From Acidobacteriota bacterium (GTDB taxonomy: Bacteria; Acidobacteriota; Thermoanaerobaculia; Multivoradales; JAHZIX01), in the NCBI GenBank assembly GCA_020439725.1, contig JAGQSE010000170.1:1-42298 (forward strand): a stretch of DNA of 42,298 bases, in the 5' to 3' direction. The notes under the pieces were generated by a model. It made no database searches. It was not told the origin of the DNA and saw only the letters and a program-made list of their open reading frames with translations. Below are positions 5,251 through 41,849 of the stretch, piece after piece (the first letter of the stretch is position 1; each line of letters opens with the position of its first letter). Position numbers and translations under genes: made by a program.

Positions 5251-7154
5251 TGGTCCTCTCTCCCTTTCGACTCGAGGTGATTTAGGTCCAGTCGGCCTGA
5301 CTTTAGGTCGATTCGAGCTTTCAAATGGGCAGGAATTGAACTTTCGGCCGCATGGACAGCTCGCTGTCGCTGGAGGCGGGCAAACTCAAGTTTCCTTCGG
5401 AGCGCCGTAGTTTCTGCTTTGCGCCTAGGGTGCTTCCTCGCCATGCCATCGACATGCACTTCGGCGTCGTCGAGCAGGCCTTGCTCCAGCAGAATTTCTG
5501 CATGCTCTATTTCGTGGGCGAAGTCCCTCGCCCTTTTGCGTCTCCAGCTCGCATAGGAGCTCTCTGACCTCTGAAGAGCCGTCGCAAGCGATAGGGCCAC
5601 AGCAAGTAGGGTGCCAGCGAGTGGAAGAACTGCTGGCAAGAGGAGGCTGTCGCTAGCTCGTCCGGCTTCGTTCTCGACGTGGGCGGACACACGGAGGAGC
5701 CACTTATCCGAGGTCACTACCTTTCCGTCTTCGGGCAGTGAAGCACTGGTCTCTTGGACTGGCTCGAAGTTCCCGGTTAGAAATTTTGTCTCAATGAGTC
5801 CTTGTGTGGTTGATGAGATCTGGATAGGTGTGGAGGTGAACCAGCGTATCCGGGGATGGTGGAGAATTCTTACAGTCGGTACTGAAGGGGGGTGATACTC
5901 AGACGTTCCGTTGATCCCGGTGAAGTGGAATATGCGCTGAAGATCGCCGTTTGTTACGCTCTCAGTAATGGCATACGAAGAGGGCCCCTGGTCGAGGATG
6001 CGGTATTCAAGGCCCTCGGCATTGGTCCAGAACTTGCTTATTGCGCCGTTACGCCCTTCGGTCTCGAATCTTCGTTTCCAGTAGATATATCTATGGCCGT
6101 TGCCGTTGAACCAGTCAGTCGGGACGATCGCTGAGTCGAGGTTCCGGGATCGAGTTCGCCAGCCAGCGATCTCGGGAACAATTGAGCGTAGCGTCGCGCT
6201 GGATACCTCGTGGGCCACGGTGCCCGGGGGTTTCCAGAGCCGCATTGATGGGAGAGCTGTGTATTCCCAGAGCGCTTTTAATTCTCGGCTCACGGACTCA
6301 TAGGCGAGAATATAAATTGGATCGTCCTCTACCTTCGAGATAACTTCTCTGCGATCGAGTTTGCGGCTTGGGTCTCGTGGGATGCGATAGATCGTAGCCC
6401 TAAGAGTGTCGGAGAGCTGGCACTCCCATGGTCCACCTTTCGTGCAGGGACTCTCCCACTGCGGCAGGTAGGCGTCCTGGCCGATGAGCCAGCCACTACC
6501 GAACTGAGCTTGAATCGGCTTGATCCCCTGTTCCTGGAGACGTTGATCTGCTTGCTCAATAGTCCAGCTCCAGTCGAGCCCCAGATCCCCGCGAAGATTG
6601 TTGAGGTCGTGGAACTCTTCGACGATCTTAAGACTCGGGAAGTCACTGCGGACAATTTGAAGATCGGCGTAGGTTACAGCCCGCGGGTCGGGCTTGGGGT
6701 TTTCTTCGAGATTCACTAGCTCTAAGGCACCAAATCTTCGGCTCCAGGTGAAGCCGGACTCCATGTTCATAAAGTAGAATTGGTAGAGACATGTTCGGTA
6801 CGGGTCTCTTCCTTCTGGGCTGCGCCAGGCGAGTACGTGCCCTGCAGCGCGAAGCCAGGAGGTCTGTTCAGAATCATCGATGCTCGCTATCTTCTCGAGC
6901 GGCCAGTCTTCTGCCTGTTCCGTCAGTTCCTCGCCAGGGAAGCCGCAAAGGAATTCGATCTCTGTCGAGGTTAGGATTGCGTGTTTCACGGCGCTAGCCG
7001 GTGCACTAGTAATGAAGAGGAGCGCGAGCAGAACACTCAGTGCGGAAGCGTGGAGACGCAGCCTCGCCAGGCCGCCGGATGTCTCTGGAGACGGCATCCT
7101 CGGAGGTGGCTCCATGCATGGCCTGGCTGCTGTGGTGCTGGCGAGAGAGTCCAT
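5247..7154 (-). CDS. secreted, C-terminally membrane-anchored hypothetical protein (635 aa)
   Basis: Signal-peptide-like LARLRLHASALSVLLALLFITSAPASA. It is followed by a large domain with no recognisable motif. There is a single TM (LLLPAVLPLAGTLLAVALSLATAL) near the C-terminus and then a basic helical tail of about 110 aa. The exact start is uncertain (M1, M14 or M20). Confidence 0.7.
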   Translation of the reverse strand: MDSLASTTAARPCMEPPPRMPSPETSGGLARLRLHASALSVLLALLFITSAPASAVKHAILTSTEIEFLCGFPGEELTEQAEDWPLEKIASIDDSEQTSWLRAAGHVLAWRSPEGRDPYRTCLYQFYFMNMESGFTWSRRFGALELVNLEENPKPDPRAVTYADLQIVRSDFPSLKIVEEFHDLNNLRGDLGLDWSWTIEQADQRLQEQGIKPIQAQFGSGWLIGQDAYLPQWESPCTKGGPWECQLSDTLRATIYRIPRDPSRKLDRREVISKVEDDPIYILAYESVSRELKALWEYTALPSMRLWKPPGTVAHEVSSATLRSIVPEIAGWRTRSRNLDSAIVPTDWFNGNGHRYIYWKRRFETEGRNGAISKFWTNAEGLEYRILDQGPSSYAITESVTNGDLQRIFHFTGINGTSEYHPPSVPTVRILHHPRIRWFTSTPIQISSTTQGLIETKFLTGNFEPVQETSASLPEDGKVVTSDKWLLRVSAHVENEAGRASDSLLLPAVLPLAGTLLAVALSLATALQRSESSYASWRRKRARDFAHEIEHAEILLEQGLLDDAEVHVDGMARKHPRRKAETTALRRKLEFARLQRQRAVHAAESSIPAHLKARIDLKSGRLDLNHLESKGREDQ

Positions 7155-7170: not shown

Positions 7171-8115
7171 TTAGCTTAGCTGCGCCTTCTTTGCCAACGC
7201 CCGCCCCCGCCCCGCCACATTCGTCCAGATCGGATCGAAGACGGGGTTCTCTTCCTTCACCGCGTCGAGACTCGCCACTGCCGTCAACTCGTAGCCCGGC
7301 TTGTCCCGGAGGCTCCGTGTCAGGCTGCGGGCTCGCTGGCGCTCGGTGGTCACGAGGAGGATCCGGAAGTCTCGTACAGCGCCGTAGCGCTGCCAGCGGT
7401 ACCGGGTACTGTCGTGTGGATCGAGCGCCGAGGCGTAGTGGTGATAGGCGAGGAGCTTGGCGGCGATTTCCCGAGCGCTCTCAAAGCCGCGATCGGCCTC
7501 AAGGAAGTAGAGCCGCGCGAGGGGCTGATCGTGCTGCGACTTGGCGAGAGCGAAGACGAGGTCGGGGCGGATTCGAATAGGAGCCGCCTGGCTGGGGACG
7601 ACGAGATCCTCCTGGCTCACGAAGCGCTCGACGTGCTTCTTGCTCGCCGTCCCCGCAACCGCGTGCGTGTGGTAGAAGGCCATGTGCAGCGGGCCGAGGT
7701 TGAGCAGTTCGAGGTGGCTGTGACGCAGGGCTTCCATGACGCGCACCGCGCACTCACTGACCATCAACGAGTGCTGCACCTGCCGCCAGGTGCCCGATCC
7801 CCGAGGTTGGTAGAGGCGCCGCTGGGGGATGCTGCAATGCTCCCGGAGCGCGGGTAGGGCCTGAGCCGCCAAGAAGTAGATGCGCTCCCGGGTCTCCAGC
7901 AGGCGGTCACCGCTGAGGTAACCGTGGTTCCAGAGCCGCTGGAGCCGCTTGCGGACGTTGTGGAGAGACGAGAGCTTGCCGGTGTCCGGTTGGTAGTAGC
8001 CAACCCGTTGGAGCTGCCGCAAGGTGAGCACGCGGACCATCCACAGCCAGCGGAACAGCTCGACGTCCGTGGCGGTGAGCACCAGGCCCGGCCTTCTGCG
8101 GTCTTCTCCTGCCAT
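7171..8115 (-). CDS. replication-relaxation (Replic_Relax) family protein
   Basis: 314 aa. The N-terminal winged-HTH-like region is LTATDVELFRWLWMVRVLTLRQLQRV...RKRLQRLWNHGYL. The C-terminal block is IRIRPDLVFAL...LYFLEADRGFES...AAKLLAYHHY, typical of this family. The stop lies 16 nt before the next gene. Confidence 0.75.
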   Translation of the reverse strand: MAGEDRRRPGLVLTATDVELFRWLWMVRVLTLRQLQRVGYYQPDTGKLSSLHNVRKRLQRLWNHGYLSGDRLLETRERIYFLAAQALPALREHCSIPQRRLYQPRGSGTWRQVQHSLMVSECAVRVMEALRHSHLELLNLGPLHMAFYHTHAVAGTASKKHVERFVSQEDLVVPSQAAPIRIRPDLVFALAKSQHDQPLARLYFLEADRGFESAREIAAKLLAYHHYASALDPHDSTRYRWQRYGAVRDFRILLVTTERQRARSLTRSLRDKPGYELTAVASLDAVKEENPVFDPIWTNVAGRGRALAKKAQLS

Positions 8116-9517: not shown

Positions 9518-9721
9518 CTACCGTCGGGGAGCCTGTGTCCGCTTGGCGCCAGGCCGTTGGCGCGGCTCAGCCAGGATGAAGCGGCCATCCGGAGGTAGCA
9601 GGTCCAGAGCGACGGAAAGGCCTTGGCCGCTCTTGGTGTTCCAGGCGGCACCGATCTTGGTCCAATAGCCGTCCTTCACGTGGAAGGCATGGAAGACCGG
9701 AGAGTTCTCATGAGGAGTCAT
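9518..9721 (-). CDS. small DUF736-like protein
   Basis: 67 aa. The sequence KIGAAWNTKSGQGLSVALDLLPP resembles the conserved (F/I)GAAWKKTS...YLSVKLDDPSF core of DUF736 proteins found on ICEs and plasmids. It is shorter than typical family members. Confidence 0.5.
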   Translation of the reverse strand: MTPHENSPVFHAFHVKDGYWTKIGAAWNTKSGQGLSVALDLLPPDGRFILAEPRQRPGAKRTQAPRR

Positions 9722-10049
9722 GGGAAAAGGGGATAAGAGGATAGGAAAAATGCCGACCGAGAGAATCCCTCTCGCTCAGCGCTTCCCTTCCAGCAGACAG
9801 AGGGTCTCCCGCGGGTCAAGGAGGAGTCGCCGGAAAGCCAGCGGAATAGCCCCGGCGACAGAGCCGCCGGATTCCGGCTCCGGATGTCTCCTCCCGCTGA
9901 TGCTCCAGGAAACCGGCCTGCTCTTCCGGGGATCTGCGCTGCGGCGGTGAAGCTCCTTGAGGCGCGGGAGATGTCTGCTCTCCTGGGAAGAAGCGAGCGT
10001 CCCCCTCTCTGGGGTTGTTCCCCGGCAGTTCGAGCCCGCACCGCGAGCC

Positions 10050-21421: not shown

Positions 21422-22279
21422 ATGGATGCTCGAGACGCTCTTCACCGTCTGCTCGAACGAGGTCCGCGGTCGCTTGCTGACGCGGAGCTCCTCGCCGTGA
21501 TTCTCGGGAACCGCTCGGAGATGCCGGAGGCTGTCGCGGAGAGTCTCCTCGCGGGCCCCGATGCCTGGTCGGAGCTGGTACTGGCGGGCGAGAACCTGCT
21601 GGAACGCGACGGTCTGAATGCGGCCGAGGCCGCGATGGTCATGGCGACTCTCGAGCTCGGACGCCGGCTCGCGGAACGGCGCATCCCCAAGCGGCGGCCG
21701 CTCTCGCAGCCCAAAGCCCTCGTCACCTATCTCGACCTCCGCTATGGCTATCGCGACCAGGAAGTCCTTGGCGCTCTCTACCTCGATGCCCGGCACCGCC
21801 TGCTCAGCGAAATGGAGATTTTCCGGGGGACGCTCAACCGCATGAGCGTCGAGCCCGGCCCCATTCTCCGGAAGGGGCTACTTCAGGGAGCTGCGAGCGT
21901 GGTCATCTTCCACACCCACCCGAGTGGCAACCCCACCGCGAGCGCCGCCGATGTCGCGTTCACCCGGCGGCTGGCGCAGTCCGCGGACATCGTGGGACTC
22001 CGGCTGCTCGATCATCTGATCCTGGGGCGTGGTGGCCGTTGGATGTCGCTCCTCAAGCGCTCGTGGGTCGACGGGTATCAGCGGAAGCGGCGGCCCCGCG
22101 TCGAGACGTCCCGCCGGGTCAAGCCGAAGTACCGTCACCCGGAGACGGGCGAGACCTGGGCGGGATGCGGAAGCATGGCGCGGTGGTTGCGGCTCGAGCT
22201 GGAGGCAGGCCGTTCGCTCGAGGAGTTCCTCGTGGGCGACGAGGGCAAGGAAGCTGTCGCGCGGGCGCTTCCGGGCTAG
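21422..22279 (+). CDS. radC: RadC-family JAB/MPN domain protein fused to a C-terminal H-NS-type DNA-binding domain
   Basis: The N-terminal LADAELLAVILG is the RadC HhH-type start. The JAMM motif is VIFHTHPSGNPTASAADVAFT (HTHPSG at 21911-21928). The C-terminal KPKYRHPETGETWAGCGSMARWLRLELEAGRSLEEFLV (22118-22234) matches the H-NS C-terminal pattern KYR.P.TG.TW.GRGR.P.W......G.SL..FLI. Confidence 0.85.
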   Translation: MDARDALHRLLERGPRSLADAELLAVILGNRSEMPEAVAESLLAGPDAWSELVLAGENLLERDGLNAAEAAMVMATLELGRRLAERRIPKRRPLSQPKALVTYLDLRYGYRDQEVLGALYLDARHRLLSEMEIFRGTLNRMSVEPGPILRKGLLQGAASVVIFHTHPSGNPTASAADVAFTRRLAQSADIVGLRLLDHLILGRGGRWMSLLKRSWVDGYQRKRRPRVETSRRVKPKYRHPETGETWAGCGSMARWLRLELEAGRSLEEFLVGDEGKEAVARALPG

Positions 22280-22391
22280 GAGCCAGGTCGCCTGCGAGGG
22301 CTTTGCTAAAATCCCTGGAAAGTCGAGTGGCCTGCCGCCTCGACGGCGCGCTGTCTGCCTCGAAGGCGGGATGGCGCAGGAGGAAGCCTCT

Positions 22392-22733
22392 ATGAGCTCC
22401 ATCGTCGTCACCTTCCCCGAGACCGCCACGGTGCCGGAAGAGCTGCGGAACGACCCCGAGCGTACACGCTACCTGATCGTGGGGAGCCTGTACCAGCAGG
22501 GACATATCTCCCGCAGGCAGGCGGCTGAGCTGGCCGGCGACGCCGAGGTGGTGTTCGCCGCGAAGATGAAGCAATACGGCTTCCAGCCTCTTGGTGAGCT
22601 CGACTCGGAAGCCTCCGTTGCGCGAGGGACCCGCTGGCAGGCTCTCGCTGAGCGTCTTGCTGGCGAGGGATTCCTCGATGGCCTCTCTGACGACGCTGAG
22701 GAACTCCTCGGTCAGGTTCGCTTGGCACTGTAA
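22392..22733 (+). CDS. UPF0175-family antitoxin-like protein
   Basis: AGGAGG lies 8 nt before ATG 22392. The sequence YLIVGSLYQQGHISRRQAAELAGDAEVVFAAKMKQYGF fits the UPF0175 pattern (A..LY..G.IS.G.AAELAG......F...L...G). The stop is 8 nt before the PIN gene. Confidence 0.65.
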   Translation: MSSIVVTFPETATVPEELRNDPERTRYLIVGSLYQQGHISRRQAAELAGDAEVVFAAKMKQYGFQPLGELDSEASVARGTRWQALAERLAGEGFLDGLSDDAEELLGQVRLAL

Positions 22734-22741
22734 CGCCCGAC

Positions 22742-23200
22742 GTGTCCCTGTACCTCCTCGACGGCAACGTCCTGACGGCGCCGGAAGACCGCGCCAAGCC
22801 TCATTTCGAGACAGTTCGGCGGCGTCTCGGCGGTCTCGCGGCGACGGACCGGGTCGGTATCTCGGTCGTGTCGGCCTACGAATACGAACACGGAATCGCC
22901 AAGGCTCAGGGAGGTTTGCAGGAAGCCCTGCGGCGTACCTGGGCGACCTTCCTGGACGTCTTCGAGATCCTGCCGCTGTCGCTCAGCGGTGCGCGGCGCT
23001 ATGGCGAGCTCCGGTCCCGCTACGAGCAGAGCGTCGGTAGCACTTCGAAAGCTGCCAGCCGCCACACGTCGGACTTCCTCCTCGCCGCCACCGCTCTCGA
23101 CCTCGAGGCGATTCTGGTGAGCGGTGACCAGCTCTTCTCGAAGCTGCGCGAGCTAGAGCCGCAGCTGCGCGTCGAGGATTGGCGGAGCTCCATCGAGTAG
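22742..23200 (+). CDS. vapC: PIN-domain (VapC-like) toxin
   Basis: The gene has a GTG start. LYLLDGNVL carries the first conserved Asp. YEYEHG, SDFLLAATAL and ILVSGDQLF supply the other acidic positions typical of PIN nucleases. Confidence 0.75.
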   Translation: MSLYLLDGNVLTAPEDRAKPHFETVRRRLGGLAATDRVGISVVSAYEYEHGIAKAQGGLQEALRRTWATFLDVFEILPLSLSGARRYGELRSRYEQSVGSTSKAASRHTSDFLLAATALDLEAILVSGDQLFSKLRELEPQLRVEDWRSSIE

Positions 23201-23435: not shown

Positions 23436-24695
23436 ATGCACTCGTGGGAACGCCGCCGCTTTCTTCATCCGCGGCACCGTGGACTCGTGCTGGGGCGCCG
23501 GCAACGCCTGAGCCGGCAGGACTCGTTCAAGAATCTGGTGCTGGTGGCACCGACCGGTTCTGGGAAGACCACCCGCTACGTCATCCCGAATGTCCTCGAG
23601 GTCGAGGGCTCCGTAGTCGTCACCGACCCTTCGGGCGAGATCTACCAGCACACCGCAGGACCGCTTCGCGACCGGGGTTTCGGCATTCAGGTGTTGCAGC
23701 CGGCGCGGCTGGCGGAAAGCGCTCGTTTCAACCCGCTGGCCTGCTGGCGCTCCGCGCAGGAGCTTCGTCAGCTCGCGACGCAGCTGGGCATGGCGACGCA
23801 GGGGCGCTCAGCGGATCCCTTCTGGACAACTTCGGCGATTAACGTGCTCTTCGTTCTGCTCACCGCGCTCTACCATCTCGAAGATCCCCGCCGTCACACC
23901 ATGGGCCATCTTCGCGACCTCCTTAATCGGTGCGGTGCTGCACACTCGAACGACTTCGAGCGCTTCATGGCTCGCTACCTGGCGGATGAGCCGCGAGTCT
24001 GGAGCGAGTACCAGGCCTTCCGGGGCCAAGACCCCAAGGTCGCCGCATCGATCGTGTCCAGCGCCCGCGCCGCGCTGGAGCTGTGGAGCGATCCGGACAT
24101 CTGCGAGCTCACCGGCCAGCACACGATCGACCTCGCAGCGCTTCGACAGGCGCGCACGGCCATCTACCTGATCGTGCCCGAGCACCAGATCCGCTACTTC
24201 GGCCCCCTGCTCAACCTCTTCTACTCCGCATGCTTCAACCACTGCCTGGTGAGCGGAAGAAGCGCCGAGGAGGAGCCGGTCTACTTCCTCCTCGACGAGT
24301 TCGGAAACCTCGGCTACGTCCACAACTTCGCCAGTGTCATCACCACGCTGCGCAAGCGGCGCTGCTCGATCAGCCTGATTCTCCAGGACCTCTCGCAGCT
24401 CCGCGCCACCTATGGCCCCGACGAGGCGCGCACGATCTTCTCCGGCGGGTGCGCGAACAAGCTCTTCTATGGCGGCCTCGACCTCGAGACCGCCGAGTAC
24501 GTCGAACGCGCCCTCGGCAAGCGCACCGAGTACGACACGGTCTTCGGGGGGATCAGTGACCGGGCGCGGACGGTGGCTGTTCCGCTGATGACGGCGGATC
24601 AGGTGCGGAGGATGCGGTGGGGGGAGGCGGTGTTGTTGTCGGGAAAGGAGCGGCCGGTATGGCTGCGGTTCGATACCAAATGGACATGGGCTTGA
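23436..24695 (+). CDS. TraG/VirD4-type type IV coupling protein ATPase lacking the N-terminal transmembrane region
   Basis: 419 aa. Walker A is LVLVAPTGSGKT followed by VVTDPSGEIY. Walker B is YFLLDEFGNLG. The sequence continues TTLRKRRCSISLILQDLSQLRATYG and ends PLMTADQVRRM...AVLLSGKERPVW. The in-frame upstream sequence back to a TAG at 23304 has no ATG, GTG or TTG and no TM-like stretch. Confidence 0.85.
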   Translation: MHSWERRRFLHPRHRGLVLGRRQRLSRQDSFKNLVLVAPTGSGKTTRYVIPNVLEVEGSVVVTDPSGEIYQHTAGPLRDRGFGIQVLQPARLAESARFNPLACWRSAQELRQLATQLGMATQGRSADPFWTTSAINVLFVLLTALYHLEDPRRHTMGHLRDLLNRCGAAHSNDFERFMARYLADEPRVWSEYQAFRGQDPKVAASIVSSARAALELWSDPDICELTGQHTIDLAALRQARTAIYLIVPEHQIRYFGPLLNLFYSACFNHCLVSGRSAEEEPVYFLLDEFGNLGYVHNFASVITTLRKRRCSISLILQDLSQLRATYGPDEARTIFSGGCANKLFYGGLDLETAEYVERALGKRTEYDTVFGGISDRARTVAVPLMTADQVRRMRWGEAVLLSGKERPVWLRFDTKWTWA

Positions 24696-33405: not shown

Positions 33406-36258
33406 TCAAAGACTTTCGGATGGCCTCTTGGTAAGCCTCTGAAGCCGGCTGCCTGCTGTCTTGGTTTCCCATGCGTCGGCTCCTTTCTCACTCTTAATTG
33501 CGAGATAGCTCTCCTCGAGAATTGGTCTGGCTTCTTTAGTGAGGCCTCGGCCGGCCATGCAGGCGCCGAGAATGCTTCGAGCGTCAGCCAGCTTGAGAGG
33601 GTCTGGAGACGACTGGCTCGAAAGAGCGTCTAGGACGTCTGCGATGAGCGCCTCTGCCTCCTCGTATTGCTGACTCTCTTCAAGAATCGAGGCGAGGCGG
33701 TGTTGATCGCGCACAATGGCTGAGTGCCTAGGCGAGAAAGTCCCGGAGTCGCGTGAAAGGGCCTCACGGGCTAGTTCCTCGGCCTCGGCAAGTTGCCCCT
33801 GACTCTGTCGGAGAAAAGCTAGGTTTTGAAGGTCGGAGGCGATGATAGGCGCGTCATCGCCATACGCGGCGCGCCTCTGTTGGGCTACCTCTTCGAACAG
33901 GCGGATTCCGGCTTCGCCCTCGCCGCTGAGCCACAGGAAGTAGGCATAGCTGGCACGAACCGATAAGACTCGCGGGTGATTTTCTGGCAAGTACTGGCTG
34001 TAGATCTCGAAGGCTTCTTCGAAGGCATCCTTTGCCTCTGGGTACCGCTCCTGTTTCTGGAGAATCAGGGCAAGGTTGCCGAGTGTGTTGGCGATATTGG
34101 GGTGGCTCTCCTTGCGGAGACTTTTCTCCATAGCGATTGAGCGTTTGTAGAGTTGCTCTGCGTGTCCGTAGTCGAGCTGGTGTGCCTTGAAGATTCCATA
34201 ATTGTTGAGAAGGCTGGCGATAGAGGGATGACCGTCAGGATAGAGCTTTTGTCCTAAGGCGAGTGCTTTCACGAAGGCGTCTTCAGATTTCCCGGGATCT
34301 TCTACTCTGCGATAGAGAACGGCGAGCTCGATGAGCGTATTGAGGGTATTGGGGTGGTCCGGCCCGAGGGTGTTCTGGTTCCACTCAAGAGCTTCTTCGA
34401 GCGTTTGAAGGGCGTTCGCGTAGTCTCCTTGGAGGCGCCGAGCTGTTCCAAGGCTGAAGAGGCTATCGCCAACCAGAGAGGCAGACTCTGGTAGGTGTTG
34501 TTGGCGAATTTGGAGAGACTGTTGGTGGGCCTCTGCCGATGCTGAATAGTCACCTTGGTTACGGTAGACAAGGCCCAGGTGATCCAGCGTTGAGGCTAGT
34601 TCTAGGCTTTGTGGGCCTTCGAGAGTGCTCCAGAGGCGTGCGGCTTGGAGTAGGTGGCGGAGGGCCAGCTCGTACTGCGCAGTATGGTTCTCTGCTAAGC
34701 CGAGGAGGTTTAGGGCTCTGGCCGTTTCCGGACTCTCTGGGCCACTCGCTTGTTTTTGGAGGTCCAAGAGCGTCTGACTCAGGGCAAGGCTCTCTTGATA
34801 GAGCCCAAGAGCGCCATAGGTTTGCTGGAGAGGGACCAGGAGCTGGGCTCTTGTCTCTGGGTCCTGATCGGAACTTGCTAACACGCGATCCTTAGCCGCG
34901 TCGAGGAGGGCGCGGGCTGTTATAACGGAGCCTTGATTCTCGTCTGGGTTGGCAGCCTCAAATATCCCAACCATGAACTCGCTGACCATTTCAGCGCGGT
35001 CTCGCTCTCGGGCCGTCTCATCACGCTGCTCTTTCATGATCCAGGCGGCGCTCAGGCTCAAGAGGATGGCCAGGAGGATGGCTGCGGACTTTCCAGGGTG
35101 GCGCCTGAATAATCTGCCTATACGGTAGCCAAAGGTGTCGTCGCGGGCTTGGACCGGCAGACCTTTTAGATACCGGTCTAGATCTTCGGAAAGCTGTAGA
35201 GGAGAACCGTACCGCCGCTCTGGCTCCTTCCGGATTGCCATCATCACGATGGTGTCGAGATCGCCTCGGAGGCGCTTCCGGAAGGCGAGCGCGGTGGGAT
35301 CCTGGCCAGAGTCAGGCGCCGGAGCGCTGGCTTCGCTAGGAAGGAGTGGAGTCTGTTGGCAGACGATTTGGTGGATCGCCGCTGCATCCTGATTCTCGAA
35401 GGAGTAGGGGGGAACTCCGGCCAAGAGCTCGTAGAGAATCACACCGAGCGAGTAGGTGTCGCTGGCAGTGGTCAGGGAGGTACCTGAGATCTGTTCTGGG
35501 CTGGCGTACTTGGGGGTAAAGAGCCTGAGGCTCCCGCCCGTGAGGGCTTCGGTGGTGCTACCAGGCTCTTCAAGGAGCTTTGCCACCCCGAAGTCTAGGA
35601 GCTTTGGCTCGCCGCCCTTGGTGACCAAGATATTGCTGGGTTTGAGATCCCGATGGACCACCAGGTTCTGGTGGGCGTATTGAACCGCTTCACAGACCTT
35701 CGAGAAGAGCGAGAGGCGCTGCTCCAGCGAAAGGTCGTGCTCCCGGCAATAGTCCGTAATGGGCTGGCCCTCGACATACTCCATCAAGTAGTAGAGCCGA
35801 CCGTCCTCTGTGGTGCCGCCTTCGTAGAGCCTGGCGATGTTGGGGTGGTTGAGCTTGGCGAGAATCGCCATCTCTCGGCGAAAGCGTCGATCCGAGTCCT
35901 CATCCCGGGCTTCGGGCCTCAGTACCTTGAGCGCTACTTCGCGGTGGAACTCATCGTCGGTCCTCGCGGCGAGGTAGACGACCCCCATCCCTCCAGAACC
36001 GAGAATCCTCAACACCTGGTACGAGCCGACCTGGCTCCCGTCAGAGAGAGGGGCGGGCTCCTCATCAAGCAGCCGGACAGGAGGGGCGTCGAGGAAGGAA
36101 ATTGCTTCAGCATCGGAGTCGAGGAAGCTTTGGAGCTCTTCGAGAAGCTCTGGATCCCCATTGCAGGCTTCAGCGAGAAATGCTGGACGCTCTTCGACCG
36201 GAAGCTCCCGGAGCTTGGGGAGGATCTTCTTGGCTTGTTCCCAGTGTTTAGGCTTCAT
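33406..36258 (-). CDS. Ser/Thr protein kinase with TM segment and C-terminal TPR array (950 aa)
   Basis: Kinase motifs are LGSGGMGVVYLA...VALKVL, HRDLKPSNILV, DFGVAKL and YASPEQ. The TM is SAAILLAILLSLSAAWIM. Many TPR-like repeats follow (LNLLGLAENH..., LGLVYRNQGDY..., LAVLYRRVEDP..., LALILQKQERY...). Confidence 0.9.
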   Translation of the reverse strand: MKPKHWEQAKKILPKLRELPVEERPAFLAEACNGDPELLEELQSFLDSDAEAISFLDAPPVRLLDEEPAPLSDGSQVGSYQVLRILGSGGMGVVYLAARTDDEFHREVALKVLRPEARDEDSDRRFRREMAILAKLNHPNIARLYEGGTTEDGRLYYLMEYVEGQPITDYCREHDLSLEQRLSLFSKVCEAVQYAHQNLVVHRDLKPSNILVTKGGEPKLLDFGVAKLLEEPGSTTEALTGGSLRLFTPKYASPEQISGTSLTTASDTYSLGVILYELLAGVPPYSFENQDAAAIHQIVCQQTPLLPSEASAPAPDSGQDPTALAFRKRLRGDLDTIVMMAIRKEPERRYGSPLQLSEDLDRYLKGLPVQARDDTFGYRIGRLFRRHPGKSAAILLAILLSLSAAWIMKEQRDETARERDRAEMVSEFMVGIFEAANPDENQGSVITARALLDAAKDRVLASSDQDPETRAQLLVPLQQTYGALGLYQESLALSQTLLDLQKQASGPESPETARALNLLGLAENHTAQYELALRHLLQAARLWSTLEGPQSLELASTLDHLGLVYRNQGDYSASAEAHQQSLQIRQQHLPESASLVGDSLFSLGTARRLQGDYANALQTLEEALEWNQNTLGPDHPNTLNTLIELAVLYRRVEDPGKSEDAFVKALALGQKLYPDGHPSIASLLNNYGIFKAHQLDYGHAEQLYKRSIAMEKSLRKESHPNIANTLGNLALILQKQERYPEAKDAFEEAFEIYSQYLPENHPRVLSVRASYAYFLWLSGEGEAGIRLFEEVAQQRRAAYGDDAPIIASDLQNLAFLRQSQGQLAEAEELAREALSRDSGTFSPRHSAIVRDQHRLASILEESQQYEEAEALIADVLDALSSQSSPDPLKLADARSILGACMAGRGLTKEARPILEESYLAIKSEKGADAWETKTAGSRLQRLTKRPSESL

Positions 36259-36337
36259 CGTGAGGGCTCCATAGGAAGGTCAGTGCTTCCTTTGTGCCTA
36301 CGAGGCGCAAAGGAGCAGATTCTTGGCTCAAGGAAAC

Positions 36338-36467
36338 ACGAGAGACGAGGGAATCGGTTCGAGGTGGTACTATGCGGGCTGCCGCACTAAGAGCTAGTCG
36401 GTAAGGGGGCCGCTCCGGCGTCACGGTGGCGTGGGAAGTGCCCCGAGCTCTTGGTGAGGTGTCCAGA
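36338..36467 (-). pseudogene. decayed 3' remnant of an ECF sigma-factor gene (paralog of 39143-39733)
   Basis: 36259-36333 aligns to 39057-39130 (the kinase 5' flank) at roughly three quarters identity by eye. AGAGACG (36341-36347) corresponds to 39146-39152 at the sigma stop. 36420-36444 (gtcacggtggcgtgggaagtgcccc) corresponds to 39213-39237 (gtcacggtggtacgggagatgccca), the region-4 HTH coding sequence, with 19 of the best 24 positions identical. There is no intact ORF. Confidence 0.4.
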
Positions 36468-39056
36468 TCAGTGGAGCTCTTCCAGGGCAGTTCGAAGAGT
36501 TCTTGACCGTTCGCTCTGGGGTCCGAAGAGGCGGTCTGAGAGCTCAGTAGCCTGGGTGAGTAGCTGGCGAGACTCTTGGCTCTCCCCCCGGCGTTTCAGG
36601 AAGTAACCAAGCTTCTCAATCCCATTGAGGAGATCTATATGGTCCTGGCCAGCGCTTGAGGCCCGTCTCCTTTCCAGTGACTCTCGATGAATAGCTTCAG
36701 CTTCCTTGAAGAATCCCTGTGCTTCGCGAATCTCTCCAATAAGGCTCAGGCTGTGAGCGATATGGGGATGGTCAGCCGGGAGGCTTGCTCTTCTTCCAGC
36801 GAGCCCGGCCTCGCAAGCTTCAAGTGCCTGGTTGTACTTGCCAGCGGTAAAGAGTGTTCTGGCGAGGTTGTGTTGAGCGATCGCTGTTTCAGGATGATCA
36901 GGGCCGTACACGGCGGTGAGCATTTGGACGGCCTCGCGACACCTTTCTTCTGCCTCTTCTTGGCGGAGGAGCTTCTCCAGAGTTCCGCAGATATTGAGGA
37001 GCGTCCGTGCTACCGAGGGATGGGGAAGATCAAAGGCCTGGAGTTCTATGTCGAGGCCACGCTCTTGGAACTCGAGGGCTTCTTCGTAGCGTTCCTGGCT
37101 GGAGAGGTTCCAGCCGAGATTGTGGAGGGAGCTTGCGAGGTTCCGATCCGTTGGGCTTAGCTCTTTCTGGCGTATGGCAAGTAACTCTCGGAAGAGCGCT
37201 TCTGCTTCCTCGTATTTGCTTTGCATCGTGAGCGTCGCGGCAAGGTTGTTTTTTGCCTCGAGTACTTCAGGATCGTGCGCACCAAGAAGGTGAGTCCGCA
37301 GAGCTAGTGCCTCACGGAACAGCTCCTCGGCCTCCTCGTGACGGCCTTGAGCAAGCAGAAGGCCCGCGAAGTTGTTCTTGAGGGAGGCATTTCGTTGATC
37401 AAATTTTGAAGGTAACGCCTTGTCGAAGACTGTTGACGACTGTCGGTAAAGTTCTTCGGACTCGTCGTACCTTCCCATGTAGTAGTAGGTAAGTGCCGTG
37501 TTACTCAGCTCTTCACCGTATTCTGCTGTCTCAGTCTCTCCGGCGGCTCGCAGTGCCTCCAGAGATGCGAGGTGGAGCGGGAGAGCTTGTTCCGCAAGCT
37601 CGAGGTCCGAGTACACACTGCCTATGCTCATTAAAAGGTCGGTCCGTAGCTGCGGATCCATTGTGCTAGTTGTTAGCAACACTTCGCTACCATGTTCAAG
37701 GAGTTCGAGTGCACTGATGTTCGAGGCTTTGATGTCCTGGGGGTCGGCTTCACGGAAGAGATTGACCAAGAAGGTTGTTGCTTCCCTAGCACGATCCCTC
37801 TCGCGTATCACCTGATCTCTTTGTTGTGTCATGACGAAGGAAGACGCAACGCTCGCGAGGATGACCAGGGCCGTTACAGCAATCTTCCAAGGATGTCGCC
37901 CGACGAGTTTCCCGGCCTTATATCCCCAGGTGTCAGCTCGGGCTTGGACTGGCCTCCCTTCAAGGTATCTGTCGAGATCATCGGAGAGTTGCTGACCAGA
38001 TCCGTATCGCCGCTCGGGCTCTTTTCGCAGGGCCACTAGAATGATCCGGTCGAGATCGCCCTTGAGGTGGCGCTGCCATCCTTTTTGGGCTCCTACTGCC
38101 TCACGGGGAACTCGGGTGCCTGCTGCTGCCACGCTTGGAGGTGCTGGTGGCTTCTGGAGAACCTCCTGGAGGAACTCCTCCAGTGACTGGCCTGCAGCGC
38201 GGAAAGGCTTTGTTCCGGAAAGTAGCTGGTATAGCAGCACGCCTAAAGAATAGACATCACTCTGGGTACCGATGTGCTGGCCAGACAGTTGTTCGGGGCT
38301 TGCATACTCAGGAGTTAAGAGCTTGTGCCCGGTTCCGGTTGGCACCCTCGGGGCACTTCCAGTTTCCTCGAGAGGACGGGCAATGCCGAAGTCGAGGAGT
38401 TTTGGCTCTCCGTCTTCCGTCACGAGCACATTCGAGGGCTTAATGTCTCGATGAACGACTAGCTGAGTATGGGCATACTGTACTGCTGCACAGACCTTCT
38501 GGAAGAGTCTTAGGCGCTGCTCAAGCGATAGCCTGTGTTCTCGGCAGTAGCTGTCGATGGCCTGACCTTCGACGTGCTCCATGAGGTAATAGAGTCGGCC
38601 ATCGTCCGTGCGGCCGCCCTCAAAGAGCCGGGCGATGTTAGGGTGATGGAGTTTTGCAAGGATTCCCATTTCCCTAAGGAAGCGCTTCTCGGCCTCGGGG
38701 CTCGTCTGGCCGACCTGAAGGACCTTGAGCGCCACTTCACGCTCGAACTCTTCGCCGATCCGTCTAGCCAAGTAGACGACCCCCATCCCCCCGGTGCCGA
38801 GAGTCTTTATTAGCCTGTAGGAACCTACTTGGCTACCCTCGGAAAGAGGGGCGAGCTCCTCCTCAAGCAGCCGGATCGGAGGGGCGTCGAGGAAGGAGAT
38901 TGCTTCAGCATCGGCGTCGAGGAAGCTATGGAGCTCTTCGAAGAGCTCTGGGTCCCCTTTTGAAACGTCAGCGAGAAAGGCCAGACGCTCTTCGACCGGC
39001 AGTTGCCGCAGCTTGGGGAGGATCTTCTTTGCTTGTTCCCAGTGTTCAAGCTTCAT
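36468..39056 (-). CDS. Ser/Thr protein kinase with TM segment and C-terminal TPR array (862 aa), paralog of 33406-36258
   Basis: Kinase motifs are LGTGGMGVVYLA...VALKVL, HRDIKPSNVLV, DFGIARP and YASPEQ. The TM is IAVTALVILASVASSFVM, followed by TPR-like repeats. By manual alignment, 76 of the first 97 residues are identical to the other kinase. Confidence 0.9.
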   Translation of the reverse strand: MKLEHWEQAKKILPKLRQLPVEERLAFLADVSKGDPELFEELHSFLDADAEAISFLDAPPIRLLEEELAPLSEGSQVGSYRLIKTLGTGGMGVVYLARRIGEEFEREVALKVLQVGQTSPEAEKRFLREMGILAKLHHPNIARLFEGGRTDDGRLYYLMEHVEGQAIDSYCREHRLSLEQRLRLFQKVCAAVQYAHTQLVVHRDIKPSNVLVTEDGEPKLLDFGIARPLEETGSAPRVPTGTGHKLLTPEYASPEQLSGQHIGTQSDVYSLGVLLYQLLSGTKPFRAAGQSLEEFLQEVLQKPPAPPSVAAAGTRVPREAVGAQKGWQRHLKGDLDRIILVALRKEPERRYGSGQQLSDDLDRYLEGRPVQARADTWGYKAGKLVGRHPWKIAVTALVILASVASSFVMTQQRDQVIRERDRAREATTFLVNLFREADPQDIKASNISALELLEHGSEVLLTTSTMDPQLRTDLLMSIGSVYSDLELAEQALPLHLASLEALRAAGETETAEYGEELSNTALTYYYMGRYDESEELYRQSSTVFDKALPSKFDQRNASLKNNFAGLLLAQGRHEEAEELFREALALRTHLLGAHDPEVLEAKNNLAATLTMQSKYEEAEALFRELLAIRQKELSPTDRNLASSLHNLGWNLSSQERYEEALEFQERGLDIELQAFDLPHPSVARTLLNICGTLEKLLRQEEAEERCREAVQMLTAVYGPDHPETAIAQHNLARTLFTAGKYNQALEACEAGLAGRRASLPADHPHIAHSLSLIGEIREAQGFFKEAEAIHRESLERRRASSAGQDHIDLLNGIEKLGYFLKRRGESQESRQLLTQATELSDRLFGPQSERSRTLRTALEELH

Positions 39057-39142: not shown

Positions 39143-39733
39143 TCAAGAGACGGCTGGAACTGGGGCGCCGAGCTCCCGCGCCAGAAACTCCTTTGCCATG
39201 GCCCACTCTCGTGTCACGGTGGTACGGGAGATGCCCAGGGCTGTGGCGGTCTCTTCGCCGGTCAGGCCAGCGAAGAAGCGAAGCTCTACGATCTGGGCGG
39301 CTAGGGGATCGAGGGCTTCGAGTTGCTCGAGGGCTTCATGAAGGCTGAGGAGGATTGCTGGTGGAACGGAGGCGGCCGCTTCGCGATCCATCCCGCCGGT
39401 CAGCGAGACGATCTCGACGTGTCGGCCTCTTTTGGCAGCTTTTCGAACTTTTGCCGCGTCGATCAGCACCCGGCGCATGAGCTTGCCGGCGAATGCGAAG
39501 AACTGCCTGCGGTTCTCCCACTGCACCTTCCGCAAGCTCATGAGGCGGAGGCAGACTTCGCTGATCAGCGCCGTGGGTTGCAGCGTGTGATCGGCGTCTT
39601 CGCGGTTGAAGTAGAAGTAGGCGCAGCGCCTGAGCTCCTCCAGGACCAGGGGCATGAGCTGGTCGAGAGCTTCGGGATCTCCCTCATTCCAGAGCTGCAG
39701 CTTCGCGGTGATCTCACCCGGTTGGATCTTCAT
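39143..39733 (-). CDS. ECF-type sigma-70 factor (Sigma70_ECF / TIGR02999-like)
   Basis: 196 aa. The N-terminus is ITAKLQLWNEGDPEALDQLMPLV. Region 2 is HTLQPTALISEVCLRL. Region 4 is IVELRFFAGLTGEETATALGISRTTVTREWAMAKEFL. These are characteristic of this ECF subgroup. Confidence 0.9.
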   Translation of the reverse strand: MKIQPGEITAKLQLWNEGDPEALDQLMPLVLEELRRCAYFYFNREDADHTLQPTALISEVCLRLMSLRKVQWENRRQFFAFAGKLMRRVLIDAAKVRKAAKRGRHVEIVSLTGGMDREAAASVPPAILLSLHEALEQLEALDPLAAQIVELRFFAGLTGEETATALGISRTTVTREWAMAKEFLARELGAPVPAVS

Positions 39734-40627: not shown

Positions 40628-41479
40628 TTAGCGCCCGCGCTCGGGAGCGCGCTCGTCCTGGCCCGGTGGACCTCGGGATCGGTCTGGAGACGGCGTGACT
40701 TGCTGTGGGTTGAGCTGCCAGGAGCGGCGGGCGTCGTCGAAGGCCTTCGCTACCTCCAGCGTCTTCAGCCGGAAGCGTCTTCCAGATTGCGCGTCCGCTA
40801 CGCCGACGGTTTGGCCGCGACGGTACAGGCGGAGGCCGTGGCGCAAGAGTCGTTGGTAGAGCTCAGGACCAGACCACGAGGCAGCGAGCTCCTGTAAGAC
40901 GACACCTCGAACCACATCCTTTCGGCAGGGTGTGGACTCGCCCCGCCTCCTCCGTTCCTGCTCTGCCCGGGTCTCGCGCTCCTTCTTCCGCGCGCGTGGT
41001 TCCTGGGCTAGCGAGTGACCCAGCTCTGGGTAGCGCTCGCGTTGGTAGCGCTCCAGTGCTTGCTGCACCCTTCGGAAGCTCTGTTTTGAGAGCCGGAGTC
41101 GCTTCGCGCTGCCGACGTTGTTGGCGGAAATCACCAGGTGGACGTGTGGGTTCGCCGTGTCGAGATGCGCCCGACCGTAGGCGAGGGCGTAGGGAGCGCG
41201 CAGCTCGAGGTACCGGCGGGTCAGGTCGAGCAGTGCGCCAGGATTGAGCTGCTCCCGGTCTTGCGGCGCGAAGCTGAGGACCTCGTGGTAAAGGACGTTC
41301 CCGTTCTTCCGCGGGGGCAACAGGTGGGCGTTGTGCAGGAACTCGCGGCGAATCTGCTCCGAAGAGCTGTGCCCGCCGAAGTTGTGCAGCAACGGTGCAG
41401 TCGTCTCCTGAGGCCGGTCGATGTAGCTCAGCAGCTGGCTGAAGCTGATGCTCTTACGCGCCATCGACTTGATGATCAT
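40628..41479 (-). CDS. MobA/VirD2-family relaxase (relaxase/mobilisation nuclease domain), short form (283 aa)
   Basis: The N-terminal MIIKSMARKSISFSQLLSYI is followed by VLYHEVLSF and the His triad HLDTANPHVHLVIS (the HxDxxxPHxH motif of this family). Confidence 0.85.
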   Translation of the reverse strand: MIIKSMARKSISFSQLLSYIDRPQETTAPLLHNFGGHSSSEQIRREFLHNAHLLPPRKNGNVLYHEVLSFAPQDREQLNPGALLDLTRRYLELRAPYALAYGRAHLDTANPHVHLVISANNVGSAKRLRLSKQSFRRVQQALERYQRERYPELGHSLAQEPRARKKERETRAEQERRRRGESTPCRKDVVRGVVLQELAASWSGPELYQRLLRHGLRLYRRGQTVGVADAQSGRRFRLKTLEVAKAFDDARRSWQLNPQQVTPSPDRSRGPPGQDERAPERGR

Positions 41480-41849
41480 GGGAGGCGTTGTCGCTACTGG
41501 GGAGATCCTCGAGGGTTTTCTGAAGCACGCTGACTACTCGCTCGAGCGTGAGCACCAGCCTGCCGGCGTTGCGGAGGTCCTGGTGCGTGACCCGCTGGAA
41601 CGAGTTCGCGTGGGCCGCCATCTGGTTGAGGTTGGTACCGACCCGGCGGATTTCCTGGATCAGCTGACCGAGATGGTTCTGGAGTGACTCGGGAAGCATC
41701 GTTCGCCGCTGGCAGTAGGCCATGGCGGCATCGCGAAGAAACGGAGCCAGCTTGGCGCCGAAGCTGCGGGCGGTTGTGAGGAGTAGCTCGTGCTGGTGGG
41801 GATAGAGGTTGCAGGTCACGCGGTGCGTGTAGGTTCCGTGCAGAGGCAT
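41454..41849 (-). CDS. mobC: MobC-family relaxosome accessory protein
   Basis: 131 aa. HRVTCNLYPHQHELLLTTARSFGAKLAPFLRDAAMAY is RHH-like. IRRVGTNLNQMAAHAN is the MobC signature (GNNLNQ). The gene overlaps the relaxase start by 26 nt. Confidence 0.8.
   Translation of the reverse strand: MPLHGTYTHRVTCNLYPHQHELLLTTARSFGAKLAPFLRDAAMAYCQRRTMLPESLQNHLGQLIQEIRRVGTNLNQMAAHANSFQRVTHQDLRNAGRLVLTLERVVSVLQKTLEDLPSSDNASHDHQVDGA

Follow-up and report, generated by a model that had tools for sequence, protein, structure and literature searches.

A RadC protein fused to an H-NS-type DNA-binding domain on a mobile-element contig binned to the Acidobacteriota

Analysis of the 42,298-nt contig JAGQSE010000170.1 (hereafter the window, i.e. 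the whole stretch of DNA analysed), which is assigned to an Acidobacteriota metagenome-assembled genome (MAG; GCA_020439725.1), revealed a gene encoding a RadC-type JAB domain covalently joined, through a basic linker, to a C-terminal DNA-binding domain (CTD) of the H-NS/Bv3F type. This architecture recurs in divergent metagenomic proteins, its two principal domains are under comparably strong purifying selection, and the gene is located on a mobile element. The interpretation that we favour, with moderate confidence, is that the encoded protein represents a DNA-tethered extra RadC paralogue of that element. RadC, the name of which stems from a misassigned repair phenotype and which is abundant on plasmids, integrative and conjugative elements and prophages, is to our knowledge among the most widespread bacterial proteins still without a known biochemical function.

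Domain architecture of the fusion protein

The fusion gene is a continuous open reading frame (ORF) that starts with ATG and specifies 285 amino acids with no internal stop. A sequence-only reading of this DNA had described the first ≈210 residues as a standard RadC protein with an intact JAMM motif, and profile searches bear this out. The RadC profile PF04002 was matched with an E-value of 6.1e-32 and 110.5 bits (cut-off 22.1), and the NCBIfam RadC model TIGR00608 was passed with 147 bits (cut-off 133.85); the equivalog model NF000642 was scored at 170.7, under its cut-off of 180. All five residues of the JAMM site E...HxHx7Sx2D are in place (E114, H164, H166, S174 and D177), and in an alignment of 83 sequences no variation is seen at E114, H166, S174 and D177, and hardly any at H164. 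The region preceding the JAB domain scored 24.8 bits with UPF0758_N (PF20582), slightly below the cut-off of 27.1, and is nonetheless included in the precomputed Pfam list; it can be aligned with full-length RadC proteins, and the AlphaFold2 (AF2) model places helices at residues 3-87 with a predicted local distance difference test score (pLDDT) of ≈90.

The JAB domain is followed by the linker QRKRRPRVETSRRVKP, which contains seven Arg/Lys versus two Asp/Glu over about 17-18 residues, and the sequence of which is not conserved in relatives, yet remains mostly basic. Beyond this linker an H-NS-type CTD had been recognised, an assignment with which the Histone_HNS profile (PF00816) agrees: when applied to the whole protein it gave an E-value of 1.3e-9 and 38.0 bits (gathering score 25.6) for residues 235-271 and spanned profile positions 1-38 of 38, the CTD piece alone scoring 41.1 bits (41.3 bits in the genome search). 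No Pfam match to the H-NS oligomerisation domain Histone_HNS_N (PF22470) was obtained in the fusion protein, the N-terminus being that of RadC, and the StpA equivalog model covered the C-terminal 45 residues only, at 13-17 bits versus a cut-off of 202. The protein ends in a private tail, for which a helix at residues 273-282 is predicted with modest confidence.

The AF2 model of the full protein has a mean pLDDT of 87, and consists of a confidently predicted helical N-terminus and JAB domain, a weakly predicted linker, and a C-terminal beta-hairpin plus helix. Foldseek matched the JAB model to the RadC crystal structure 2QLC with an E-value of 7e-11, a template-modelling (TM) score of 0.85 relative to the target and a root-mean-square deviation of ≈2.0 Å; beyond 2QLC, the matches of the full model were deubiquitinases such as AMSH and BRCC36, and the bacterial protein BubCD, all of them weak (E > 1e-3, TM 0.2-0.3). 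For the CTD alone, a model with a pLDDT of 76 was built from a four-sequence alignment, and its top three Foldseek matches in the PDB were 2LEV (the Ler-DNA complex), 2L92 (Bv3F) and 2L93 (Salmonella H-NS), with E-values of 0.17-0.96 and TM scores of 0.39-0.49. The predicted secondary structure (strands at 236-238 and 245-247, helix at 251-261) agrees with that of the H-NS CTD. Since these E-values are weak for so small a domain, the PF00816 profile match stays the chief evidence for H-NS identity.

When compared with stand-alone RadC/YicR (UPF0758; PF20582 plus PF04002; TIGR00608; 2QLC), the fusion shares the helical HhH-type region and the JAB domain with its intact metal site, and is 52-57% identical to plain 228-aa acidobacterial RadC proteins. 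These plain proteins end in ...SLRERGGW, whereas the fusion adds a basic linker of ≈18 residues and a 38-residue H-NS-type domain, and constitutes a copy on a mobile element that is additional to a chromosomal plain RadC. The CTD in turn follows the pattern KPKYR.P.TGETW.G.G....WL......G....DF that is found in Bv3F-type (RGR) proteins such as Burkholderia Bv3F (2L92) and in Ler (2LEV), and is predicted to adopt their beta-hairpin/helix/short-helix topology. It differs from them in that the N-terminal coiled-coil oligomerisation domain is absent, the hook reads CGS, the domain belongs to a subfamily with GRGxMAxWL in which Ala replaces Pro, and the phylum is otherwise without H-NS domains.

Recurrence, selection and the minor-groove hook

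The covalent link between RadC and an H-NS-type domain had been regarded as unusual. It is rare, but it is not a one-off: in total, ≈28 divergent metagenomic fusion proteins were collected, which fall into at least 20 clusters with sizes of 1-5. The same architecture is present in P0002 (271 aa, 80% identical to the fusion of the window), in P0003 (283 aa, 52% identical, from a TARA contig) and in P0109 (204 aa, in the ≈50% identity range, from an Acidobacteriota MAG). A missed stop or a frameshift between two genes, a doubt that the sequence-only reading had itself raised, is ruled out as the source of the fusion, the ORF being continuous and the RadC plus Histone_HNS layout being conserved in these divergent relatives on independent contigs (80%, 52% and ≈50% identity).

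A phmmer search with residues 228-285 as the query over 1.84 billion representatives returned 1115 matches, of which the best 150 were examined for domains; PF00816 was present in all 150, RadC also in 11, and Histone_HNS_N in only five. Fourteen further clusters having both domains came from a search in which a short-form fusion served as the query, and one of them carries the NCBI name 'H-NS histone family protein [Acidobacteria bacterium]'. A word-indexed search performed with the C-terminal region alone produced 33 candidates and three matches, and is too insensitive for a 38-aa domain. No fusion was found in a named cultured organism: a CTD-pattern scan of species-representative genomes, which is narrow and may omit the window's own genome, gave 19 loci; the products of all 19 are small H-NS-like proteins of the ordinary kind, from Proteobacteria or Planctomycetota, and none includes RadC. 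Furthermore, the RadC/H-NS fusion is not described in the literature searched, including papers that mention both RadC and H-NS, and the term 'H-NS' occurs zero times in the two RadC-fusion catalogues (PMC3239186, PMC5512222). Both domains are already auto-annotated in databases, and the protein thus combines known families in a domain architecture that has not been described, without amounting to a new type of system.

The fusions are built on two RadC scaffolds. In the short forms (204-254 aa) the HhH region is missing and the RadC part is limited to the JAB domain, with the CTD being retained; in a maximum-likelihood tree of JAB domains, 18 of these short-form fusions constitute one clade (support 94/81). 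The full-length fusions (P0001, i.e. the protein of the window, with P0002; P0133 with P0285; and P0003) are located in an unresolved group together with 24 plain full-length RadC proteins of the acidobacterial type. The tree as a whole requires five gains or losses of the fusion, and a single origin is compatible with its strongly supported branches alone. The nearest neighbours of RadC-linked CTDs are other RadC-linked CTDs, and this tight clustering, in combination with the two scaffolds, suggests that two RadC backbones either acquired a single type of CTD or exchanged it with each other. It is also suggested that the RadC-CTD pairing itself is under selection.

Purifying selection on the individual domains was assessed by means of Nei-Gojobori pairwise omega values, for which the fusion of the window was compared with its 80%-identical orthologue at locus L007. 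The values obtained were 0.205 for the N-terminal region, 0.041 for the JAB domain, 0.331 for the linker and 0.036 for the CTD, against a synonymous background that is saturated (dS, the synonymous divergence, being ≈1.2). Within the CTD, 16.5 synonymous and 3.5 non-synonymous differences were counted; the amino acid differences number three and include Arg/Cys at the hook. As the omega of the CTD is close to that of the JAB domain, the H-NS-type domain is as constrained as the catalytic domain.

With regard to the hook, the sequence-only reading had stated that the RGR element is replaced by CGS and the following Pro by Ala. Sequence and register are correct: in the HMMER alignment C249-G250-S251 lie opposite V-G-R of Ler, R-G-R of Bv3F and Q-G-R of StpA and H-NS, and A253 sits opposite the conserved Pro, the best PDB sequence match of the CTD being Ler (2LEV, E 1.3e-5), with Bv3F (2L92) at E 5.7e-4. 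The hook accordingly departs from the (Q/R)GR minor-groove loop. Most of this departure is, however, a family trait. Among 30 CTDs from 28 collected fusion proteins, hook position 1 is Arg in 28, the exceptions being the Cys of the window and an Ile in one very divergent protein with two CTDs, while position 3 is hypervariable (R in eight, S in six, H in five, N and L in two each, and F, Q, C, K and P once each); the hooks of relatives read RGS, RGN, RGR or RGH. Directly after the hook, 'MA' takes the place of 'xP' in 22 of the 30 RadC-linked domains; an earlier count had given 10/17 RadC-linked domains versus 5/≈200 other CTDs (best-150 set). On sequence grounds, RadC-linked CTDs are a distinct subfamily with the signature TWAGRGxMAxWL, in which it is normal to find Ser as the third hook residue and Ala instead of the conserved Pro. 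Since Ser and Ala are common among these domains, R249C is the only private change of the hook in the window. Its codon is TGC (22166-22168), where the L007 orthologue has CGG (Arg), representing two base differences. In H-NS and Bv3F, DNA binding is all but lost when QGR or RGR is mutated to AGA, and RGR-type (Bv3F-type) proteins are typical for GC-rich hosts (PMC8476142).

A CGS hook is also present outside the fusion family. Cardiobacteriaceae MAGs of two rumen species (L013 and L014, positions 5803-6132 in each) encode 109-aa H-NS-like proteins with the hook TWTGCGSHPKWV, in which the CGS is the same as that of the window and has arisen independently. As it is kept in full-length H-NS-like proteins of two species, CGS is compatible with a maintained H-NS-type protein, and judged from these sequences the CGS hook alone is no sign of decay.

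Many of the H-NS-type CTDs nearest to the query (P0121 and many of P0122-P0270) occur as tandem arrays within one protein, two to three copies being common; in P0121 (801 aa), 10 CTD stretches were delimited by phmmer and eight by Pfam. In these tandem-CTD proteins the hook is mostly RGP and no Histone_HNS_N domain is present, and they look like an undescribed architecture.

Mobile-element context and neighbouring genes

The sequence-only reading had pointed out that RadC genes are common in the leading regions of integrative and conjugative elements and plasmids. The gene content of the window supports a location on a mobile element: a type IV coupling protein (T4CP), a relaxase, MobC/NikA and Replic_Relax are encoded in the window (Table 1), and similar genes are found near relatives of the fusion. 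The gene itself is positioned mid-contig beside the T4CP gene and ≈19 kb from the MobC/relaxase genes, and no oriT was identified that would place it in a leading region. An integrative or conjugative/mobilisable setting was observed for six of the seven fusion places examined (the window, L007, L008, L032, L035 and L036), the setting of L033 being ambiguous. At L007 the syntenic order is surface proteins, UPF0175, RadC-H-NS and, adjacent to the fusion, T4CP; at L008 a tyrosine recombinase (integrase) adjoins the fusion; and L032 carries Replic_Relax, HTH_17 and a ParE toxin-antitoxin pair. L035 and L036, in which the order is integrase, small ORF, RadC-H-NS, AAA_25, HTH_17, MobC, relaxase and T4CP, each represent a textbook integrative mobilisable/conjugative element.

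Table 1. Position of the fusion gene, its domains and other genes in the window
Feature	Position	Strand	Basis or remark
RadC/H-NS-CTD fusion gene (P0001, 285 aa)	21422..22279	+	ORF; Pfam RadC and Histone_HNS, NCBIfam TIGR00608, all above cut-offs
N-terminal helical HhH-type/UPF0758_N region, residues ≈9-90	21446..21691	+	PF20582 profile, AF2, omega
RadC-type JAB domain, residues 95-212	21704..22057	+	PF04002, JAMM columns, Foldseek, omega
Basic flexible linker, residues 216-233, DGYQRKRRPRVETSRRV	22067..22120	+	AF2 pLDDT 52-66, omega 0.33
H-NS/Bv3F-type C-terminal DNA-binding domain, residues 234-271	22121..22234	+	PF00816, PDB sequence matches, CTD-only AF2 and Foldseek, omega
Hook C249-G250-S251 (TGC GGA AGC), where relatives have RGx	22166..22174	+	HMMER alignment to solved structures; codon of L007 orthologue
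Private C-terminal tail GDEGKEAVARALPG	22235..22276	+	Alignments; not in 80%-identical P0002
UPF0175 antitoxin-like gene (120 aa)	22371-22733	+	PF03683, 31.9 bits
PIN toxin gene	22742-23200	+	PF01850, 54.6 bits
VirD4/TraG-type T4CP (419 aa)	23436..24695	+	PF02534, E 6.8e-63; synteny in L007
MobA/VirD2 relaxase and MobC/NikA	40628-41849
Replic_Relax	7171-8115
TrwB/TraG-D_C/DUF87-type (TrwB/HerA-like) ATPase (876 aa)	178-2808	-
Two tandem Ser/Thr protein kinase-TPR proteins (950 and 862 aa)	33406-39056	-	Between cargo and relaxase
ECF sigma factor gene	39143-39733		Precedes the two kinase-TPR proteins

The window is a whole contig, the largest of the 866 contigs of its MAG (82.6% complete, 4.45% contamination), and its GC content is 60.5% as compared with 68.9% for the MAG. 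The contig is mosaic in this respect, 1-kb windows spanning 53%-67% and the lowest values being reached at 28-39 kb, in the area of the kinase genes and the gene for the giant surface protein. In view of this GC gap, the binning of the contig to the genome is uncertain, and the contig represents either a foreign element or a mis-binned one; the source names given for the nearest homologues of the fusion point to the Acidobacteriota. No terminal overlap indicative of a circular plasmid was detected in the contig, no tRNA gene was found in the 42,298 nt when integration beside a tRNA was looked for, and a local promoter and terminator scan gave nothing above chance. The genome encodes a separate, plain chromosomal RadC and no other H-NS domain above the PF00816 cut-off. 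Across 401 genomes of the phylum (400 sampled genomes and that of the window), only the window's own H-NS domain exceeded this cut-off.

A UPF0175-PIN pair lies directly downstream of the fusion gene, a matter of context that does not imply a functional link to the fusion. At L007 a 76-aa UPF0175 gene (9666-9896; 51% identical) is instead situated upstream of the fusion, and no PIN gene was called there. At L010 (1217-1450) and L032 (2748-2978), which are unrelated contigs, a homologous ORF of ≈76 aa without a Pfam match overlaps the start of a full-length RadC-H-NS gene, which suggests translational coupling; the window has no such ORF. The existence of a fixed two-gene module was considered and is rejected, the small upstream ORFs being of at least two unrelated kinds (UPF0175 at L007 and in the window, the 76-aa protein at L010 and L032) and varying in position.

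The T4CP is short in both syntenic elements (419 aa in the window; 410 aa at L007, 11017-12249), with the Walker A motif at approximately residue 40, and seems from its sequence to be without the usual N-terminal transmembrane region; at L035 and L036 the T4CP has a normal length of 693 aa. The 876-aa ATPase matches the PADLOC model mad8 (E 6.8e-14), probably via a shared HerA/FtsK-like ATPase fold, and no defence-system match was returned by PADLOC for the fusion protein. The window further carries a DNA methyltransferase gene and genes for giant Ig-like surface proteins.

Proposed function and alternative explanations

Considering architecture, recurrence, selection and context together, a DNA-tethered role, at which the sequence-only reading had hinted, is the most economical interpretation, with the tethering itself being the part that we infer. 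In this protein a putative metal-dependent JAB enzyme is connected, by a linker that is basic and flexible, with a putative minor-groove binder of the Bv3F/H-NS type that is monomeric. The CTD and linker would most likely hold or concentrate RadC on double-stranded DNA, both supplementing the N-terminal HhH region in full-length forms and replacing it in the JAB-only short forms, so as to allow RadC to act on the DNA, or on a DNA-bound entity, of the element or the host. As the oligomerisation domain of H-NS is absent, the fusion would not be expected to bridge or silence DNA in the way that H-NS does. In the copy of the window, in which the conserved groove-inserting Arg is replaced by Cys, AT-specific insertion is probably weakened, and residual binding would rely mainly on the basic linker and on the other CTD contacts K234, K236, R238 and R254. 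The positive charges of the H-NS linker are known to contribute strongly to DNA binding.

Tethering would fit a wider pattern, as RadC is fused elsewhere to the DNA-acting modules HhH, ArdC-N, DnaG primase and DinG helicase, and such fusions have led to the hypothesis that RadC is involved in nuclease or nucleic-acid-processing reactions (PMC3239186, PMC5512222). The published fusions (HhH, ArdC-N, DnaG-like primase, DinG/RAD3 helicase; Iyer et al. 2011, 2017) resemble the one reported here in that the RadC JAB domain is covalently attached to a nucleic-acid module, often on conjugative elements. They differ in the nature of the partner, which in the current case is predicted from its sequence to be a small double-stranded DNA minor-groove binder, and neither an enzyme nor a single-stranded DNA binder.

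Several considerations weigh against a tethered enzyme. We know of no biochemical activity established for any RadC, so that an enzyme acting on DNA is itself an inference, and three divergent fusions (P0210, P0167 and P0218) have lost JAMM residues and kept the CTD, implying that catalysis is not always required. The hook of the window is without either Arg and, by analogy with the AGA mutants, may fail in groove insertion altogether; in addition, AT-rich targets are scarce on an element of 60.5% GC in a genome of 68.9% GC. Statistical support for the fold of the CTD is low (E 0.17-0.96), owing to the tiny domain and the four-sequence alignment. Finally, the CTD may recently have lost its function in the lineage of the window, as a pairwise omega merges both lineages and cannot date R249C.

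The most probable of the alternatives is that the H-NS domain of the window copy is a decaying or disabled remnant, R249C having knocked out the sole conserved groove inserter, and that the protein now behaves like an ordinary RadC carrying a tail. No other member of the core fusion family has Cys as its first hook residue (Arg in 28/30), the Arg/Cys substitution is among just three CTD differences from the L007 orthologue, and mutating both hook side chains nearly abolishes binding in H-NS and Bv3F (PMC8476142). The rest of the CTD is nevertheless intact, with an omega of 0.036 and no frameshift or stop, other contacts are left in R254, K234, K236, R238 and the basic linker, and an identical CGS is maintained in the H-NS-like proteins of the two Cardiobacteriaceae species. 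We regard a disabled remnant as unlikely.

The JAB domain could alternatively be a peptidase that is brought by the CTD to protein substrates on DNA; these might be, for instance, a nucleoid protein, a ubiquitin-like tag used in defence, or a protein that is covalently bound to DNA undergoing transfer. Isopeptidase activity is common to all JAB domains that have been characterised biochemically (PMC5512222), the Foldseek matches beyond 2QLC are deubiquitinases such as AMSH and BRCC36, together with BubCD, and a T4CP and relaxases occur in the gene neighbourhood. However, RadC-type JAB domains have been argued by Iyer et al. to be without a ubiquitin-tail groove (PMC5512222), the non-RadC structural matches are the weak ones described above, and no candidate substrate gene is conserved beside the fusion; a peptidase role is regarded as unlikely.

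Slightly less credit is given to an anti-silencing decoy, i.e. a monomeric CTD that, in a Ler-like manner, would compete with a xenogeneic silencer of the host for the AT-richer DNA of the element, so that transfer genes stay expressed and RadC is of secondary importance. Ler, the best PDB sequence match, is a natural H-NS antagonist, the fusion is without an oligomerisation domain, the element is 8 GC points below the genome and thus the kind of DNA that silencers target, and plasmid-borne H-NS homologues are widespread (PMC12826799, PMC11796372). Among these homologues, the 'stealth' or regulatory proteins Sfh and Sfx resemble the fusion in that an H-NS-family DNA-binding domain is carried by a conjugative or mobilisable element, but they are full-length oligomerising silencers of Proteobacteria (PMC11796372, PMC12826799), whereas the fusion comprises a CTD only, on a putative enzyme, in a phylum without H-NS. 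With no other H-NS domain above the cut-off in the host or in the 400 sampled genomes of the phylum, there is no H-NS to compete with; moreover, the JAB domain is as constrained as the CTD, the CTD subfamily is bound specifically to RadC scaffolds, and the hook of the window is without both Arg residues. It is very improbable that the fusion or its Cys codon is an artefact of assembly, binning or sequencing: although the MAG is split into 866 contigs (82.6% complete, 4.45% contamination), the GC content of the contig is 8 points off the genome and TGC may arise from a CGC codon by a single-base error, the same architecture recurs across numerous independent contigs that stem from different samples, the ORF is continuous, and TGC versus the orthologous CGG amounts to two differences on a saturated synonymous background (dS ≈1.2), as in real divergence.

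Returning to DNA tethering, a more specific and decidedly tentative proposal is that the RadC-linked H-NS domains constitute a dedicated targeting module, which has co-evolved with RadC on mobile elements and has been exchanged between the two RadC scaffolds. If this were true, the target of RadC activity would be double-stranded DNA, with its sites being read via the minor groove, the combination of a DNA-binding handle and an enzyme would represent the first tractable in vitro system for the RadC substrate, and an H-NS-type hook would be able to work with the first Arg only, or as CGS without either Arg.

Because fusions of RadC with other DNA-related modules had been known before and led in the same direction, and because the chemistry of RadC is not revealed by the current work, the significance of the finding is moderate rather than high. 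A selected fusion of RadC with a well-understood type of domain for the minor groove of double-stranded DNA lends weight to the idea that DNA is where RadC acts. While the enterobacterial paradigm stresses the third-position Arg of the hook, it is the first Arg, not the third-position one, that is conserved in the RadC-linked branch. The range of the H-NS CTD is extended beyond proteobacterial silencers: here it would serve mobile elements as a monomeric, portable module for targeting, in a phylum otherwise without H-NS. In practical terms, the DNA-binding domain provides a handle that could be used to find genomic targets and to set up substrate assays for RadC.

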